64,000 nt of DNA, taken from positions 160,001 to 224,000 of the forward strand of contig CAVYRH010000004.1 of NCBI GenBank assembly GCA_963770835.1, read 5' to 3'. The notes beneath the pieces are model-generated. The model was given only the letters and a program-made list of their open reading frames with translations. It ran no database searches and was not told the origin of the DNA. The stretch is from an uncultured Pseudomonadota bacterium (GTDB lineage: Bacteria > Oederibacteriota > Muellerivitia > Muellerivitales > Muellerivitaceae). Numbering within the stretch: position 1 is the first letter of the stretch; each line of letters opens with the position of its first letter. Below, one piece after another: positions 1,422 to 62,399 of this stretch. Made by a program: the position numbers and the translations under genes.

Positions 1422-1760
1422 ATGAGCGAGACCGAAGAGCTTTCCCAAAAAAAATGCAAACCCTGCGAGGGAGGAACCAAACCCTTGAACCGCGTGATGG
1501 TGGAGGGCTACCTGGCGGGCCTGCCGGGGTGGCAACTGCGTGAAAATTGGATTGAGAAAACCTTTGGCTTCCAGAATTTCCACGAGACCATGTCCTTCGC
1601 GAATGCCGTGGCCTTCATCGCCAACCGGGAGGACCACCATCCGGACATGGAGGTGGGTTACAAGGCCTGCAAGGTCAAGTACACCACCCACGCCATCAAA
1701 GGGCTCTCGGAGAATGATTTCATCTGCGCGGCGAAAGTGAACAGACTGCTTGAAGGCTAG
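1422..1760 (+). CDS. phhB: Pterin-4-alpha-carbinolamine dehydratase
   Basis: C.PC N-terminus, EDHHPD and YTTHAIKGLSENDFICAAK motifs; GGAG RBS. Confidence 0.92.
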   Translation: MSETEELSQKKCKPCEGGTKPLNRVMVEGYLAGLPGWQLRENWIEKTFGFQNFHETMSFANAVAFIANREDHHPDMEVGYKACKVKYTTHAIKGLSENDFICAAKVNRLLEG

Positions 1761-57008: not shown

Positions 57009-57419
57009 TTGGCGGGTTATTCCCAAACACCCCTTCTGAAGAAACTTGGGATCAAAGGCGAGTTCCGCATGGCTGTCCTTAACGCCCCCCAGGACTATTT
57101 CAAATGGTTGGGCCAACTGCCGCCGGGCGTCCAAGTTGTTTCTTTTCCCAAGGGAGAAATGGATTTCATCCATTTTTTTACCAAGAACCGCAAGGAATAT
57201 GAAAAGAGATTGGTGGACTTTAAAAAAGCCGTAGCGCAGGACGGTATGATCTGGGTTTCCTGGCCCAAAGCGGCCTCCAAAGTGCCAACGGACGTGACGG
57301 AAAAGGTGGTACGTGAATACGCCTTAAAGATCAGCCTGGTGGACATCAAGGTCTGCGCGGTGGATGAAACCTGGTCGGGTTTGAAACTGGTGATTCCGGT
57401 GAAAGACCGTAAAAAATGA
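57009..57419 (+). CDS. DUF3052-family protein
   Basis: MAGYS.TPL.KKLGIK, WVSWPKAASK and LVDIKVCAVDETWSGLKLV. Confidence 0.88.
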   Translation: MAGYSQTPLLKKLGIKGEFRMAVLNAPQDYFKWLGQLPPGVQVVSFPKGEMDFIHFFTKNRKEYEKRLVDFKKAVAQDGMIWVSWPKAASKVPTDVTEKVVREYALKISLVDIKVCAVDETWSGLKLVIPVKDRKK

Positions 57420-57591
57420 ACGAGGCCCTATCGCCAATTGGACTTAGGCTTGGCAATATCAATTGTTGGTCGGCAATCGGGGATTGTTCTTTGTTAGCCT
57501 TGATTTATTGATTTTCTCAAACTTACACTCAAATGCCGTTAGATATTTGGGTGTAAGTTTTTTTGGTTATGGAGTGTATTTATGTTTTTTC

Positions 57592-57713
57592 AAAAAAACA
57601 AAAAGGCCGCACCCACCCGTTTATCCTTTGGGAGAACAAACCGCTTCAGCTTTAGACTAAAGACTTCGAAGCCACGGAGAGAGTTGTGACTTTTCCTTTC
57701 GGAAGGTGCGGTT
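57592..57713 (-). ncRNA. Candidate small RNA 1 (about 120 nt)
   Basis: Promoter TTGAAA-16-TAAATT; 5' CCGCACC pairs with 3' GGTGCGG followed by a U-tract; internal hairpins include UUCC-GAAA-GGAA; G-U pairs favour the minus strand. Confidence 0.5.
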
Positions 57714-57782
57714 AAATTTAATTTAAAAACGAAGGGATAGATTTCAAGGGGGAGGGGGGAGAACCGCAAAATTTTCAAAGGG

Positions 57783-57826
57783 AATAAAAACCCTCAACTG
57801 CCGCCAGGCAGTTGAGGGTTTTTATT
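57783..57826. terminator. Perfect 20-bp inverted repeat / bidirectional terminator
   Basis: AATAAAAACCCTCAACTGCC-gcca-GGCAGTTGAGGGTTTTTATT. Confidence 0.85.
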
Positions 57827-57849
57827 TGGAAATGGAGTTTATTTACAAT

Positions 57850-57940
57850 AAAAAAGGCCGCACGCTCCGGAATTCCGGAGATCAGGGGCTCACCCAGTTT
57901 TTAGTGGTAGTGGCCCGTACTCTGATGGACTGTGCGACCT
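57850..57940 (-). ncRNA. Candidate small RNA 2 (about 90 nt)
   Basis: Promoter-like TTGTAC-16-GAAAAT; 5' GGTCGCAC pairs with 3' GTGCGGCC followed by U6; three-way junction with ATCAG/CTGAT and CTCCGG/CCGGAG stems. Confidence 0.45.
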
Positions 57941-58237
57941 TTTTTCATTTTCTCCCATCCTTCGATGGGTACAAGTGGAATCTTGAAATCCCGGATTATT
58001 TTTAGCGCATAAAGCAGGCCAGTAAAAAAGAACCGGCCGAAAAATAAAAAACGCTTTTTTAACAGGCTGGGAAAAAATAGAACAATCTATTTTCAAAACA
58101 ACGCTTTTGTAAAAACGTTTGAAATTAAAGATAAAAGTGTCCTCCGAAAACCTCCCGAAGTTTGCGTGGGAGAACGATCTTTTTTGGGCTATAACTATTT
58201 GAGTTTTGTTGAGCATCCAAAGCGGCTAAGGAATTTT

Positions 58238-60388
58238 TTGGAATTTTTCAAAAACACCCAGGTGAAAAAAGCGGCTTTTCCGGCAGTGTTTGTTTTAGCC
58301 GCATTGGGCCAATGGTTCATGGCCCAAAACCAGGCAACGGCAACCGTTTTTCCGGCGCTGTTTTTTTACGCTTTCGCGCTTTATCTTTGGTTTCTCACTT
58401 TAAAAAAAGAGAAAACCGGACTCCTGGATGAAAAGCCCCTGACGGCCCGGCTGGAATGGGTGTTGTTTGGCTTTATCCTTTTAATAGCTTTTTTTTTAAG
58501 GGTTTATGAGCTTGATCAAATCCCTTCGGGCATCTACCTGGATGCCTCAGGGCCCGCCCTTTACGCCCTTAAAATGCTTCACGAGCATTTTAAGCCCCCC
58601 TTTATGCTTCCCGCCTTCGCGGCCAATCCTTCGTATTTGGTGTATCTTTTGGCAGTTTGGTTCCGTTGGTTTTCCCCGACCCAGGTGAACCTGTTCCTGT
58701 TTTACGTTGTTTTCGCCATGGCCGCTTTGCCTTTCATTTATTGGACTTTTCGCCAATTGGCAGGCCCCCAGTCCGCTCTTTTAACCGTTTATTTCATCGC
58801 CGTCATGCGGTGGCACATGGTTTTCAGCCGAATCGGCTTTCGGGGAATCCAGGTTCCCTTTTACATGTTTGGAACCCTGGCGTTTTTTCTCTACGGTTTA
58901 AAACTCAAGAAAGGTTGGCCTTTTTTCCTTTCCGCGCTGTTTTTAACAGGCGGGTTATACACTTATCAATCCTTTAAAGCATTCCCTTTAATGATGTTGA
59001 TCCTGTTGGTTTACGAGCATTTCAAAAACCCCAAAACGCTGAAAGCCCTGGCGGTTCCCCTCCTGGCATCGGCCGCTTTGTGCGGTTTCTTCACGGTTCC
59101 CTTACTCCATTACTGGAACCAGCAGGGCAGCCTGGGAACCCGGGAATCGCAGATTTTTATCGGGAAAGAGGTGGTCCAGGAGAAAAGCCTGCGGCCCTTG
59201 GCGGAGAAAGCCCTGCAAACCGCCTTGATGTTTAACCGAAAGGGCGAAGAACAACCGCGGCATAATTTCAAAGATCACCCAATCCTCGACGATGTCACGG
59301 GGCTCTTTTTTATTTTGGGTTTTTTCCTCGCGCTTTGGAAATTCCGGCAAAAGCCTTATTTTTACGCGGTTTGCGGCTTTTTCGTCATGAGCCTGCCCGG
59401 CCTGCTTTCCAGCGAGGAAACCCAATCTCATCGGATGCTGGGCGCCCTCCCTTTCGCGGCTTTTTTCGCGGCCGGCGCGGTTTTAACCTGGCGCAAGGGC
59501 ATGGCCGAGCGTTTTCCTTCCTTTCGTCCCTGGGTTAACGGCCTCGTGATGGGGCTTCTGATTTTCGCGGCCATCGAAAATATCAAAACTTATTTCGTGG
59601 ACCAGGCAGGGGATTATGACTGTTGGAGGGATTTCAACATCGAGGCTACGACCGTTGGGAAAACCGTCGTCCAGCACCCGAACACGGTCTTTTACCTGGC
59701 GCCGGCCTTTTACGACCATTTCACGGTTCAATACCTGGATTATTTCGAGTCCAACCGCGTCCATTTACTGGATTTGGGGGAAATGAACCATCTACCTCTG
59801 GATACCCGCCTTTCCAAGATTTGCTTCGTCCTGGACGAGGGAAAAAGTCCGACTTTGGCCTTTTTGAAAGGCCTCTATCCTCAGGGACAGGAAGAGCCTT
59901 TTAAGGACCGGTACGGGAAAACACTCGCGTTTTTTTATTACGTTTCGGGCCAGGTAAAACCGATTTCGTTTCAAAAGGGCCTCCAAAGATGGGAAAACCC
60001 TAATGAAAACTCTCCCGACTTGGTCTCCACCGGACTTGTACAAGACCCCCTCATTAATTTCACTAATATCGGCGATTTGGGGGTCAGCCATCCGCCGGTT
60101 TTGGCGGTTTGGAAGGGGAAAATTCGTATACCGGCAACGGGTTCTTACGGTTTTCTCATTCTCACCCAAGATAAAGGAGAATTGGATTTGGATGGCCGGA
60201 AAGTGGTGGAGAACCTTCAAGGTGGGGAAGAAGTGATCCGCTTGACGGCAGGGTGGCATTCCGTCGAGCTAACCTGCCAGAGGGACAATAACCCGGATGT
60301 GGCCCTGGATTTCCACCTTCTCTGGAAAAAGCCCGGTAACCTCAACTATGAAGTCGTTCCGAATTCGGCTTTCGGGAAAATCCGATAA
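58238..60388 (+). CDS. ArnT/PMT-like (GT-C) membrane glycosyltransferase with a C-terminal PA14-like domain
   Basis: LRVYEL...P.G.Y.D, WH..FSR.GFR and YTY; C-terminal W.GKIRIPATGSY.F...D...L.LDG...LTAGWH...L.WKKP; TTG start after AAGGA. Confidence 0.8.
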   Translation: MEFFKNTQVKKAAFPAVFVLAALGQWFMAQNQATATVFPALFFYAFALYLWFLTLKKEKTGLLDEKPLTARLEWVLFGFILLIAFFLRVYELDQIPSGIYLDASGPALYALKMLHEHFKPPFMLPAFAANPSYLVYLLAVWFRWFSPTQVNLFLFYVVFAMAALPFIYWTFRQLAGPQSALLTVYFIAVMRWHMVFSRIGFRGIQVPFYMFGTLAFFLYGLKLKKGWPFFLSALFLTGGLYTYQSFKAFPLMMLILLVYEHFKNPKTLKALAVPLLASAALCGFFTVPLLHYWNQQGSLGTRESQIFIGKEVVQEKSLRPLAEKALQTALMFNRKGEEQPRHNFKDHPILDDVTGLFFILGFFLALWKFRQKPYFYAVCGFFVMSLPGLLSSEETQSHRMLGALPFAAFFAAGAVLTWRKGMAERFPSFRPWVNGLVMGLLIFAAIENIKTYFVDQAGDYDCWRDFNIEATTVGKTVVQHPNTVFYLAPAFYDHFTVQYLDYFESNRVHLLDLGEMNHLPLDTRLSKICFVLDEGKSPTLAFLKGLYPQGQEEPFKDRYGKTLAFFYYVSGQVKPISFQKGLQRWENPNENSPDLVSTGLVQDPLINFTNIGDLGVSHPPVLAVWKGKIRIPATGSYGFLILTQDKGELDLDGRKVVENLQGGEEVIRLTAGWHSVELTCQRDNNPDVALDFHLLWKKPGNLNYEVVPNSAFGKIR

Positions 60389-60393
60389 GGGCG

Positions 60394-61365
60394 TTACTTC
60401 GAGTCGGCGGGCGGGGCGGGGTTTTCCTCCACCGGCTTTTGGGTTTCTTGAAAAAGAAAAAGGGTCCCCCAGACCTTGCCCGAAAGGGTGGTACCGGAGG
60501 CGCTGTCCAGACGGAACCGCTTAGGTTTATTGTTCCAAACGATGTCCACATATTCCCGCTTGAGTTCCTTCCGGTCCTTTAGGGATTGGGCCATCCTCGC
60601 GCCGATTTCCCCCAGGGCGTTCTCCTTAAAAAGGTACAAATTAGTCAGGGATTTGGGGTTCATCTCCAGGATTTTCCCGACGGGCGCGTTGACGAAAAAA
60701 ATGTTTCCATCCGTGGAAACGGCCAGCGCCCCAATGGGAAGTGAATCCAAAACGTTCTTCAGAGTGGCCGCGTATTCCAAGGCCATTTGGTCGCCTTCCT
60801 TCACCCTTTCGGACAAAAGGCGCGCCTTCCGGACTAGGTCAGTGATTTCCTTTTCCTCTTGGACGGTCCGGAAGGCCAGGTAGGCCGAATGGATGGAAAC
60901 CACGAAAAGCAGGGCGCAGGACAAAAGCAGGAAGGGGTCCATGTAATTGAAGTTGTCGCTTTTGACGTAAACCAAGTAAATGTAGAGGGCCACCACCGCG
61001 ATGGCCACGAAGAGGCTTCGCCCCACGGACTGGCTCAAGGCCGAAATGAAAAAGGTGAGGAAGGTCAGGATGAGAAGGTTGGTCTCGAAGCGGTCGAAGA
61101 GATAAAGCCCGGCCAGGAGAAAGACGAAGTCCATGGAAAAGACAATGTATTGGAAGCGCACCTTCCCAAAGACATCCTCCTTCAGGAAATAAAAGGGGAG
61201 AAAAGTAGCCGCCAGGGCCAGGGCATAGGCCAGCACGGTGATTTTTTGATCCGGGTGGGCCTGAAGGAAAAGGAAGGCAAAACAATAAAGCGTGAGCGCC
61301 AGCAACAAGCGGATCAAGAAGATGTTCTTCTTGACGCGGGGTGTGGCTTGTTGGATTTCACTCAT
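60394..61365 (-). CDS. Polytopic membrane protein with coiled coil and PAS domain, no output domain (PilS N-terminal-like)
   Basis: About 6 TM helices; NVLDSLPIG..AV..DG.I.FVN PAS start; ends G.LFLFQE followed by a short tail; no H-box. Confidence 0.75.
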   Translation of the reverse strand: MSEIQQATPRVKKNIFLIRLLLALTLYCFAFLFLQAHPDQKITVLAYALALAATFLPFYFLKEDVFGKVRFQYIVFSMDFVFLLAGLYLFDRFETNLLILTFLTFFISALSQSVGRSLFVAIAVVALYIYLVYVKSDNFNYMDPFLLLSCALLFVVSIHSAYLAFRTVQEEKEITDLVRKARLLSERVKEGDQMALEYAATLKNVLDSLPIGALAVSTDGNIFFVNAPVGKILEMNPKSLTNLYLFKENALGEIGARMAQSLKDRKELKREYVDIVWNNKPKRFRLDSASGTTLSGKVWGTLFLFQETQKPVEENPAPPADSK

Positions 61366-61462
61366 GGGGGGTTGAAAACCTTTTTTTATTGCCACAAAAT
61401 CCACGGAAACATTTTTAAATGTCAAAGTGCCGTGGATTCCATCATAAGGCGGGCCAATTTCC

Positions 61463-62399
61463 ATGCAAAGCCAAAAGACAACCTATCCCCCCAGTGTGTG
61501 GCTGGCCCTGGCCTTGGTCTATCTCGTTTGGGGTTCCACCTATTTGGGCATTCACTTCGCTATCCAGTCCATCCCTCCCTTTCTCATGGCGGGAGCCCGC
61601 TTTTTAACCTCCGGCCTGATCCTTTTCGGCTTCGCCGTTTTATACGGCCTGGCTTCCTCCAAGGGATTTCCCCGGATCACCTGGGGCCATTGGAAGTCTT
61701 CCGCCGTCATCGGTTTTTTCCTGTTGCTCATCGGCAACGGCGGCGTGTGCTGGGCCGAACAAAAGGTGCCCTCCGGCATGGCGGCCCTCCTCGTGGGGAC
61801 GGTGCCCCTTTGGATGGCACTCTTGGAATGGACCTGGAAAAAGGGGTCAAGGCCGGGGCCCCAGGTTTGGATCGCCTTACTGCTGGGGTTCACGGGGATC
61901 GCCGTCTTGGTTCTGCTCCGGCCCGGGGATGGGCCCTTGCGGGTGGACCCCCTTTGGGCCCTCTTGCTGGTGGGAACCTCGCTGGCCTGGTCCTGGGGCT
62001 CCCTTTACGTCCGGTCCGCGTCGCTCCCTTCCTCCGCCCTCCTCGCCACGGCCCTGGAAATGATCGCTGGGGGCTTTCAGCTATTGGTGGCTGGGTTCCT
62101 GCTGGGGGAACCCAGCCGGTTCCACTTCTACCAATTGACCACCTCCTCGGTAGAGGCCTGGGTTTACCTGACGCTGGTGGGTTCGCTGATCGGTTTTACC
62201 TCTTAATATTTGGGTCCTGCAAAAGGCCACGCCGGGCTTGGCCTCTACTTATGCCTTCGTGAACCCCGTCATCGCGGTCTTCCTGGGCTGGCTTTTGGCC
62301 GGGGAGGCCCGCTCGCCTTCCCTTTCCCTGGCGGCGGCCCTGATCGTGACGGCTGTCATCCTGATCACCCGCGCCTCCCCCCGAAACCGGGGGAATTGA
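61463..62399 (+). CDS. EamA/DMT transporter (YedA-like), +1 frameshift at 62205-62206
   Basis: VYLVWGSTYLGI, PPFLMAGARF and AEQKVPSG; after TCT-TA(A)T the next frame gives IWVLQKATP..ASTYAFVNPVIAVFLGWLLAGE, stop at 62399. Confidence 0.85.

Follow-up and report, generated by a model that had tools for sequence, protein, structure and literature searches.

Two adjacent structured units lie on the minus strand of the window, by which we mean the whole 64-kb stretch of DNA analysed, with unit 2 at positions 57939-57850 and unit 1 at approximately 57713-57600. A sequence-only reading had described two minus-strand units here, each with a TTG-type promoter and a CGCAC/GUGCG closing helix, and our reading of the sequence bears this out: in each unit the CGCAC/GUGCG helix joins the 5' and 3' ends, and both units finish with the identical GUGCGGCCUUUUU. 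The common 3' end was likewise confirmed, as GTGCGGCCTTTTT occurs exactly twice in the window, once at each unit (57600-57612 and 57851-57863, both minus strand). The 4.58-Mb genome holds four copies of this sequence, those outside the units being a coding-like stretch and a plain hairpin terminator. The 3' ends of the units are further linked by an 18-nt direct repeat (89%).

The predicted unit 2 RNA (57850..57939, minus strand, about 90 nt), delimited by its fold and scoring 109.4 bits with model R1, is closed by helix P1, in which GGUCGCAC (57939-57932) would pair with GUGCGGCC (57863-57856). Its predicted interior consists of P2 (AUCAG/CUGAU, extended by GGGCCACU/GGUG-A-GCCC) and P3 (CUCCGG-AAUU-CCGGAG), and a U run follows P1 at 57855-57850. 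The first copy of a common downstream motif, CTCCATTTCCAAA (57825..57837, minus strand), sits between unit 2 and a perfect 20-bp inverted repeat. This repeat, said earlier to separate the units, was located at 57783..57826 (minus strand; arms 57783-57802 and 57807-57826, 4-nt loop), and with an A run ahead of it and a T run behind it is terminator-like on either strand. The predicted unit 1 RNA (57600..57713, minus strand, about 114 nt, delimited by its fold; 137.7 bits with model R2) is closed by a P1 helix of CCGCACCU (57711-57704) with GGGUGCGG (57614-57607), which would enclose a GNRA-capped hairpin, a hairpin with AACUCUCUCC in its loop and two more hairpins, one of them CUCCC-looped. Its 3' end reads CC and then a U run at 57604-57600, with further U to 57592. 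The second copy of the downstream motif, CTCCATAACCAAA (57562..57574, minus strand), follows, as does a 16-bp imperfect inverted repeat (57519..57560), on the plus strand a terminator-like site behind a DUF3052 gene.

Upstream of unit 2, a glycosyltransferase-like gene on the plus strand (58166-60388, weak PA14 match) separates it from the gene for a 356-aa membrane protein on the minus strand (60394..61464), the C-terminal part of which is PAS-like by reading and for which Pfam gave a weak DUF2142 match only. In other genera the gene for this membrane protein lies next upstream of unit 2, on the same strand. The gene upstream of unit 2 changes between genera, with the promoter set unchanged.

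Predicted folds, pairing and distribution

Folding reproduced the structures described earlier, namely a three-way junction for unit 2 and a multi-branch fold with GAAA and CU-rich loops for unit 1. The unit 2 junction, closed by P1, has a predicted energy of -43.2 kcal/mol (z -5.47), and none of 200 shuffles was as good. Unit 1, with its GAAA loop and its loops AACUCUCUCC and CUCCC, reaches -38.0 kcal/mol (z -2.14), matched by 5 of 200 shuffles. The plus strands fold slightly more poorly (z -4.53 for unit 2, -1.75 for unit 1). Of 31 unit 2 sequences, 21 have U-G at pair 9-98 and 27 have it at pair 37-61; since the opposite strand, or duplex DNA, would have A-C mismatches at these positions, a minus-strand RNA is favoured, in agreement with the earlier argument from G-U pairs.

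Across relatives, 98.4% of 806 cells in the unit 2 helices and 99.0% of 313 cells in the unit 1 helices can pair, versus 28-48% and 36-49%, respectively, when the partners are slid; these figures are biased toward the structure, the underlying alignments A3 and A4 having been fitted to the models. Covariation is thin, as the sequences are very alike, with double changes at only three pairs in unit 2 and six in unit 1, so that where homologs with covariation had been anticipated, the homologs exist and the covariation is sparse. Conservation in unit 2 follows the helices: a level of at least 90% is reached by 46 of 52 paired columns and by 13 of 45 unpaired ones (12 of these 13 being flank columns), and junction strand J1/2 is variable. 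In unit 1 the GNRA loop varies between GAAA, GCGA and GUGA, eight of nine distinct sequences retain the loop A(A/C)CUCUCUCC (the ninth is short of one A), and the second loop, CUCCC/CCCCC, is also kept. Loop indels in relatives have lengths that are not multiples of three, and small-ORF readings of both strands were rejected, their similarity being limited to the RNA overlap; together these two observations indicate that the units are non-coding.

Using the 746-bp spacer as a BLAST query, we found matches in 18 of 24 family relatives, over query positions 208-324 (unit 2) and 409-608 (unit 1). Both BLAST and covariance-model matches in relatives span just the two units, the flanks being unalignable. 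Of 30 family relatives, 21 have a single strong copy of unit 2 by model R1 (77-113 bits), which also matches all 11 metagenome loci; the model finds no strong copy in 68 genomes from 22 other families of the phylum, and none in the other nine family relatives, some of which are 96-99% complete. Strong copies of unit 1 (model R2, at least 101 bits) are present in six of the 30 relatives, from four genera including the window's own, where they invariably share the strand of unit 2 and lie 61-284 nt downstream of it. The model also matches 4 of 11 metagenome loci. Units 1 and 2 are lineage-specific and conserved at fixed places in one bacterial family. Weaker R1 matches at G000:C26:26909 (26.1 bits) and in G015 (21.7 bits) read as coding sequence and were discarded; weak R2 matches (20.9-24.7 bits) occur in G004 and G076. 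A loose 16-17-base pattern hit at least 120 stretches in species genomes of unrelated phyla, and since none of the 80 listed loci matches R1, we attribute those matches to chance.

Homology between the two units was rejected, as model R1 scores 7.3 bits on unit 1 and R2 scores 3.6 bits on unit 2, with the closing helix and tail alone aligning. In genera g11 and g7 (G013 and G009) the locus is occupied by a different sealed RNA, whose promoter set is the same and whose hairpins show compensatory changes; a third unit is present in G001 and G010. The proposal of a conserved handle with variable cargo stands insofar as helix and tail are common and the interiors unrelated, and it gains from the g11/g7 variant. 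A genome search for the handle pattern recovered both units and no further RNAs: of its four matches, two are the units themselves, one is unit 2 read on the reverse strand and the last is apparently due to chance, and a reversed-genome control gave six. With the pattern at just these two RNAs, the "family" would have two members per genome at most.

Promoter elements and 3' ends

The promoter scan placed a -35 hexamer TTGAAA (57742..57747) and a -10 hexamer TAAATT (57720..57725) upstream of unit 1 on the minus strand, 16 nt apart (57747-57720); CTTGAAAT is kept at the former in relatives, and the latter is TAnATT-like in most of them. The unit 2 promoter, unlisted by the scan, was read from the sequence as TTGTAC (57969..57974, minus strand), a 16-nt spacer and GAAAAT (57947..57952), 7 nt before the first G of the closing helix. 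Its TTG belongs to a sigma-70-like pattern, TTG-N16/17-nAnnAT-N6-8, that 30 of the 31 distinct unit-2 loci retain; the spacer measures 17 nt in 23 of them and 16 nt in seven, and the RNA start lies 6-8 nt further on.

Further upstream of unit 2 lies a sigma-54-type promoter-like element, TGGCCTGCTTTATGC (58007..58021, minus strand), with GG at 58020-58019, GC at 58008-58007 and 10 nt between them. Its GG-N10-GC core is invariant in all 31 distinct loci, as is the longer form GG-N5-TTTATGC (31/31). The C at -12 lies 66-68 nt 5' of the first G of unit 2 in 29 of the 31 loci and at 58 and 70 nt in the other two. The element agrees with the sigma-54 consensus YTGGCACG-N4-TTGCW as given in PMC2725144, and validated Salmonella sigma-54 promoters include ATGC -12 elements according to PMC3844500. 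It stands in tandem with the sigma-70-like element, about 30 nt apart and without overlap, and a start from it would add a leader of about 55 nt to unit 2. The same GG/GC element is found at the loci of the variant RNA in G013 and G009; none is present upstream of unit 1. Genome profile searches show that rpoN is encoded (Sigma54_DBD, 213.9 bits), together with nine Sigma54_activat loci of at least 137 bits and one split locus; the 64-kb window contains no enhancer-binding protein gene. From these elements we infer that sigma-54 may use the conserved upstream site. A genome-wide regulon with the TTTATGC-type element was considered and dropped, as the 56 loose matches mostly fall at start codons or within coding sequence, and no RNA or gene is evident downstream of the look-alikes at C4:613169 and C4:719831.

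At the other end, at least four of the six positions directly after the closing helix are U in 30 of 31 distinct unit-2 loci. A closing helix succeeded by a U run would also serve as a terminator, and the shared CGCAC/GUGCG helix appears at least to be placed like a terminator stem. The terminator scan called the closing helix of neither unit, since what each helix encloses in place of a loop is 65-95 nt of branched RNA. Both units are succeeded by strong hairpin terminators of the ordinary kind, here and in several relatives, and in the G011 copy of unit 2 the U run is missing and a hairpin terminator stands 15 nt downstream, so the real 3' ends may lie further on. The downstream motif, searched as CTCCATWWCCAAA, has four matches in the genome, two of them coding-like and the other two one after each unit; it is kept in a minority of relatives.

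Known families and alternative explanations

The units are uncatalogued by Rfam, in keeping with the earlier remark that they were not recognisable as tRNA, 5S, SRP, 6S or a riboswitch. Rfam 15 gave no match at gathering score in the 64-kb window or at the loci of 10 relatives, and the best sub-threshold scores within 57400-58200, owed to the terminator hairpin, were 28-29 bits where the cut-offs are 45-100. SRP RNA (RF00169, G000:C4:717687-717784, 63.8 bits) and 6S RNA (RF00013, G000:C11:304425-304606, 51.9 bits, above cut-off) map elsewhere in the genome. A 6S identity was also dismissed on shape, the units being branched and of 90 and 114 nt and 6S a rod of about 180 nt with a central bubble. 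The protein partners that had been named fared poorly: in this 96.4%-complete genome we found no match for Ro60/TROVE (PF05731, with positive controls in two genomes), Hfq (PF17209) or CsrA (PF02599), and none for ProQ (PF04352). Hfq and ProQ are likely missing from the genome, though unproven to be so because of its 96.4% completeness. A CsrB/RsmZ-type sponge was rejected, as there is no CsrA gene and the GGA triplets of unit 1 fall in stems of the predicted fold. A riboswitch or 5' leader was set aside because the downstream genes are convergent here and in most relatives. A perfect DnaA-box-like TTATCCACA lies upstream of unit 2 in six relatives, but none is near the locus here (the window has nine, against 8.8 expected), and a replication origin was rejected. 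A search for long antisense targets in the genome returned 13-16-nt matches at chance level (E at least 0.076). Among the papers listed, those on the phylum are community or genome surveys, with none on its RNAs, and nothing relevant was found on sigma-54 combined with small RNAs and a closing stem.

The sealed domains could be the 5' parts of longer sRNAs ending at the hairpins at 57783 and 57519, with single-stranded CUCCAUWWCCAAA as a pairing seed and the sealed domain as a stabiliser. The same motif, an A run and a long hairpin do come 13-26 nt past both units, these are the only non-coding occurrences of the motif in the genome, G003, G004, G007 and G075 also have it past unit 2 or unit 1 (in G001 it is degenerate), and the G011 arrangement described above fits as well. 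We nevertheless regard this reading as doubtful, as the U run comes directly past the helix in 30 of 31 loci, many relatives are without such a tail, the loose motif pattern occurs in only 8 of 31 distinct unit-2 loci (two of these, by eye, within the end of a neighbouring gene), and the hairpins would also suit a role as terminators of convergent plus-strand genes. We consider it improbable that the units act at the DNA level or in cis, as palindromic protein sites, bidirectional terminators or insulators between convergent or divergent genes: the U-G pairs would become A-C mismatches in that setting, promoter-like elements are kept at a fixed upstream distance and stay with the element when neighbouring genes differ, hairpins show compensatory changes, and the branched interior far exceeds what a terminator requires. 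Such a role would nonetheless account for the plus strand of unit 2 folding nearly as well as the minus strand (z -4.53 versus -5.47), for a perfect 16-bp palindrome inside unit 2, for the A and T runs on either side of the helix, and for helices that are kept by sequence and not by covariation.

We think it highly improbable that the units are a diverged Y RNA, 6S RNA, SRP RNA, riboswitch or leader overlooked by the Rfam models in a little-studied phylum. A long 5'/3' closing helix with a U tail is typical of Y, 6S and SRP RNAs, and the literature found on this phylum offers community surveys and no studied RNAs; but SRP and 6S RNAs are accounted for elsewhere at 63.8 and 51.9 bits, there is neither a TROVE/Ro gene nor an Rfam match at gathering score, most loci have no co-oriented gene downstream of unit 2, and the variability of J1/2 is unlike that of a ligand pocket. 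Hardly any weight attaches to the type I toxin-antitoxin arrangement raised earlier, in which unit 1 would be antisense to a hydrophobic ORF (57463-57660). The ORF does run opposite the 3' part of unit 1 and is hydrophobic in its first half, but its similarity is confined to the overlap (residues ~44-65, or 22-65 or 34-65 within the genus), the hydrophobic N-terminal part is lost outside the genus and the start context is unconserved; as the ORF is not conserved, the arrangement fails. Equally remote is an origin as mobile-element ends or remnants or as a dispersed repeat, an idea prompted by the 13-nt terminal inverted repeat formed by the ends of unit 2 and by the repeated 13-mer. There is a single copy per genome in a syntenic place, the handle pattern is confined to this locus (four genome matches against six in the reversed control), plasmid and phage collections gave no match, and no transposase-like ORF was noticed, by reading, among the flanking ORFs; the known repeat or IS end that might have undone the earlier proposal did not appear.

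Proposed function and comparison with known systems

The two adjacent minus-strand units are, in our assessment, most probably independently transcribed genes for small structured non-coding RNAs of about 90 and 114 nt, each closed at its ends by a helix that, with the U run, would double as terminator; from the sequence and the models we put this at roughly 55%. Judged from the same sequence, the units are likely to be regulatory RNA genes. Unit 2 would be transcribed from its sigma-70-type promoter, starting at the helix, and may be further controlled by a sigma-54-type promoter 66-68 nt upstream, by analogy with the dual-promoter genes glmY and glmZ. The closing helix and U run would terminate their own RNA and guard both of its ends. 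What is conserved in unit 2 is its helices, to the exclusion of loops and junction strands, and the RNA is therefore predicted to act through protein binding and not through base-pairing. The unit 1 loops (AACUCUCUCC and the CUCCC type) could block translation by pairing with the Shine-Dalgarno regions (GGAG) of mRNAs, on the model of RsaE/RoxS. The shared CGCAC/GUGCG helix and GCC-U tail would then form a common end module serving as terminator, stability element and possibly recognition handle.

It is tempting to speculate, though we think it unlikely, that the locus is a family-wide slot for sigma-54-gated sealed RNA cassettes, in which interiors are exchanged (unit 2 and the G013/G009 variant) or copied alongside (unit 1 and the third unit of G001/G010) against a constant background of dual promoter, helix and U tail, CGCAC/GUGCG being the handle for an RNA-binding protein that replaces Hfq, ProQ and CsrA. 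If transcribed, the units would give this uncultured lineage its first candidates for regulatory RNAs. The strictly conserved pair of sigma-54-type and sigma-70-type promoters and the sealing helix common to unrelated interiors offer an experimental handle, and as the lineage seemingly lacks the usual small-RNA chaperones, the units could be bait for the protein that does that job. Their practical value is modest pending expression and a target.

Sigma-54-dependent small RNA genes include GlmY/GlmZ, Qrr and Pxr, and Rfam gave no match that would indicate homology to any of them. In GlmY/GlmZ, one RNA of the pair sequesters a protein that recognises the shared stem-loop. According to PMC3844500, glmY and glmZ each have a sigma-54-dependent and a sigma-70 promoter. 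Like this pair in Enterobacteriaceae, the locus would hold two sRNA genes, and unit 2 has conserved elements of both promoter types. Unlike in GlmY/GlmZ, these two elements form a tandem with about 30 nt between them and no overlap, unit 1 is without a sigma-54-like element, the two units have the closing helix alone in common, no enhancer-binding protein gene is adjacent, and neither sequence nor structure matches in Rfam.

For RsaE/RoxS of Firmicutes, PMC6158497 describes binding to Shine-Dalgarno sequences through a C-rich motif that is present in duplicate, one copy being in a hairpin loop, in bacteria with no known dependence on Hfq. Unit 1 resembles them in its invariant CU-rich 10-nt loop and its second CUCCC/CCCCC loop; it differs in that its motifs are CU-rich (CUCUCUCC) and not CCCC, that its predicted fold is closed and multi-branched, and that Rfam indicates no homology.

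Bacterial Y RNAs are small, with a long 5'/3' closing helix and a U-rich 3' tail, and the gene for Ro60 (TROVE domain) usually adjoins them. Units 1 and 2 share the end-closing helix and U-rich tail; unlike the Y RNAs, they occur in a genome with no TROVE/Ro gene found and have no Rfam match (Y RNA models included, if these are in Rfam 15). They are like ordinary bacterial sRNA genes in having a predicted promoter, a short predicted non-coding transcript, a GC-rich stem with a U run and a lineage-restricted distribution. Unlike those genes, however, the terminator stem would consist of the extreme 5' and 3' ends, so that the whole RNA is the terminator "loop", and one sealing-helix sequence serves two unrelated interiors.

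Two candidate sealed RNAs in one spacer

Two candidate small-RNA genes, units 2 and 1, lie on the minus strand of a 746-bp spacer. It is flanked by two plus-strand genes, one for a DUF3052 protein (57009-57419) and one (58166-60388) that resembles glycosyltransferase genes and matches PA14 weakly. In the predicted folds, the helix GGUCGCAC/GUGCGGCC of unit 2 (G57939 to a U run at 57855-57850) closes a three-way junction, and the helix CCGCACCU/GGGUGCGG of unit 1 (about 57713 to a U run at 57604-57600) closes a multi-branch structure whose hairpins include one capped by GAAA, one with AACUCUCUCC as its loop and one with CUCCC in its loop. Both 3' ends consist of the identical 13-mer GUGCGGCCUUUUU, which has just four exact copies in the genome, the two outside the units being unrelated. 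The DNA between the two units contains a 20-bp inverted repeat without a mismatch. Both units fold better than shuffled sequences (unit 2, z = -5.47; unit 1, z = -2.14), and slightly better on the minus strand than on the opposite one. The sequence-only reading had described the shared 13-mer, the helices, the folds and the 20-bp repeat, and was right wherever it could be checked. Closing helix and tail are all that the units have in common, and in the genome the handle (the closing helix CGCAC/GUGCG) has this arrangement at these two units alone.

In alignments that were fitted to the covariance models, the four helices of unit 2 (31 distinct sequences) pair in 98.4% of cells, compared with 28-48% when partners are slid, and unit 1 (9 distinct sequences) pairs in 99.0%, compared with 36-49%. 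Both-side changes occur in three pairs of unit 2 and double changes in six pairs of unit 1, covariation being thin in both because the sequences are so similar. The unit 1 tetraloop varies yet stays in the GNRA class, and the CU-rich 10-nt loop of this unit is essentially invariant. Conservation of at least 90% is seen in 46/52 paired versus 13/45 unpaired columns of unit 2, whose variable parts are the junction strand J1/2, the large apical loop and the loop of P3, the CUCCGG-AAUU-CCGGAG hairpin. U-G pairs are common in unit 2 (pair 9-98 in 21/31 sequences, pair 37-61 in 27/31) and are compatible with the minus strand only, as had been claimed.

The units had not been recognised as tRNA, 5S, SRP, 6S or a riboswitch, and in Rfam 15 no family reached the gathering score in the window, in the spacer under permissive settings or in the loci of ten relatives. 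SRP RNA and 6S RNA were rejected as identities, the genome's own copies being located elsewhere. The units are most likely new families of an already known kind of gene.

Promoter elements and 3' ends

Ahead of the unit 1 helix by 8 nt stands a promoter-like TTGAAA-16-TAAATT of textbook form, retained in relatives; the counterpart of unit 2, TTGTAC-16-GAAAAT, stands 7 nt ahead. The pattern TTG-N16/17-nAnnAT-N6-8 is kept at 30 of 31 distinct unit-2 loci, as is the U run after the helix (30/31). This analysis newly found, 66-68 nt upstream of unit 2, a sigma-54-type GG-N10-GC element (TGGCCTGCTTTATGC, 58021-58007, minus strand) that is invariant at 31/31 unit-2 loci. Judged by its sequence, the element agrees with two consensus sequences given in PMC2725144, YTGGCACG-N4-TTGCW for sigma-54 promoters and TTGGCACGGTTTTTGCT for Geobacter, and PMC3844500 describes Salmonella promoters, validated as sigma-54 promoters, that have ATGC at -12. 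The genome encodes sigma-54 and at least nine enhancer-binding proteins, with none of the latter genes in the window. Both the putative action of sigma-54 at unit 2 and the choice of start are inferred.

Several features adjoin or resemble this element. A 7-bp hairpin flagged as terminator-like (GGCCGGTTCTTTTTTACTGGCC, 58017-58038, minus strand) overlaps its -24 GG. Outside the window, close look-alikes of TGGYnnnnTTTATGCG occur in non-coding DNA of the same genome (C4:613169 and C4:719831, both minus strand), with no sealed RNA or co-oriented gene evident behind them. In six relatives (L173, L175, L176, L177, L183, L184), a perfect DnaA-box-like 9-mer, TTATCCACA, precedes the element by 8 to about 70 nt; the window's own locus has no such box.

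Each unit is followed after 13-26 nt by the 13-nt motif CTCCATWWCCAAA (57825-57837 after unit 2, 57562-57574 after unit 1), then by an A run and a long hairpin, the stretches spanning 57837-57783 and 57574-57519 (all minus strand). The motif occurs at these two sites only in the non-coding DNA of this genome and is also present in a minority of relatives. Because motif and hairpin stand behind each unit, longer transcripts ending at the hairpins are possible; the motif could be a seed within such transcripts, be bound by a protein or belong to a family of terminators. In several relatives, and in metagenome contigs too, the hairpins behind unit 2 or unit 1 are followed by a REP-like element, AACCCTGAG(C/T)(G/A)AGC...CGA(A/G)(G/C)GGGT (L182, L183, L185, L202, L211).

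Distribution and the changeable slot

When the spacer was compared by BLAST with 40 relatives, matches were obtained in 18/24 genomes of the same family and, outside it, as a single spurious match of 28 nt. The matches comprise the two units only, the sequence on both sides being unalignable. R1, the covariance model of unit 2, gave one strong match (77-113 bits) in 21/30 family relatives and, under stricter filters, none in 68 genomes from 22 other families of the phylum; two weak matches were rejected, both reading as coding sequence. R2, the model of unit 1, matched strongly in 6/30 relatives (four genera counting the window's genome), always on the strand of unit 2 and 61-284 nt downstream of it. 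A metagenome search with a specific 29-base pattern found 11 loci, of which 11 match R1 and 4 match R2. On one of these contigs (L203), where both units share a strand, unit 2 (649-744) is downstream of unit 1 (231-346); the genomes examined all show the reverse order. Plasmid and phage collections held nothing similar.

A 356-aa membrane protein (encoded in the window at 60394-61464) is the same-strand upstream neighbour in at least 9/22 loci; in the window's genus and two others an opposite-strand glycosyltransferase-like gene takes this place. The genes downstream are convergent. Whatever genes adjoin, the unit 2 promoter set is unchanged, which favours a gene of its own over a leader or 3' UTR.

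In five genomes of the family that lack a strong unit-2 match, we surveyed what follows the membrane-protein gene. G013 carries a different sealed RNA of 99 nt at the unit-2 position (L215:1218-1323, minus strand), with the same sigma-54-like and sigma-70-like elements and a predicted GGCCGC.../...GCGGCC helix with U run, three hairpins and a four-way junction. R1 scores it at 10.5 bits, recognising the handle alone. A homolog in G009 (L221, about 1501-1610, minus strand) shows compensatory changes in two hairpins, so that this RNA takes the place of unit 2 in two genera without it. One of its hairpins, CUCUCGAAUUCGAGAG, is similar to P3. The slot holds a tiny lysine-rich ORF in G006, G015 and G073, and in G019 the membrane-protein search gave a weak match only. 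ORFs of this kind, about 16-19 codons long, of type MAKKAKKAAKKKKK and served by a strong ribosome-binding site (GGAGG), recur at the locus in several genera: no more than about 400 nt behind the membrane-protein gene in L212, L213 and L214, and 300-560 nt downstream of unit 2 in L169, L186 and L187. Between unit 2 and unit 1, G001 (L168) and G010 (L174) carry a third candidate for a sealed RNA, about 95-115 nt long, with its own promoter TTGAT-N17-TATGA, a U run and a closing helix GCCUCGYCUCC/GGGAGRCGGGGC in which the two genomes differ by a compensatory change. A partial copy is seen in L166 (G002), and BLAST found none in the window's genome.

Interpretation and known systems

Each of the two units is most likely a gene in its own right, encoding a small structured RNA with sealed ends that is restricted to a single bacterial family. 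A type I toxin-antitoxin pair had been offered as an alternative, unit 1 being antisense to an ORF at 57463-57660; this ORF is conserved solely across its overlap with unit 1, and the proposal therefore fails. A repeat or IS end is ruled out by the single copy per genome at a syntenic place, and a genome-wide search found no long antisense target of the units. The common helix and U tail of these RNA genes would act as terminator and end protection. The helix may also be a protein handle, though this is unsupported. Genes for the partners suggested earlier (Ro60, searched as TROVE/Ro; Hfq; CsrA) and for ProQ did not turn up in the 96.4%-complete genome.

Since helices hold the conserved positions of unit 2, it is predicted to be a protein-binding RNA. 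Control by both sigma-54 and sigma-70 is predicted as well; in this it would resemble glmY and glmZ, as described in PMC3844500. The CU-rich loops of unit 1 are predicted to pair with Shine-Dalgarno regions, which likens it to RsaE/RoxS, which, according to PMC6158497, pair with such regions via C-rich motifs.
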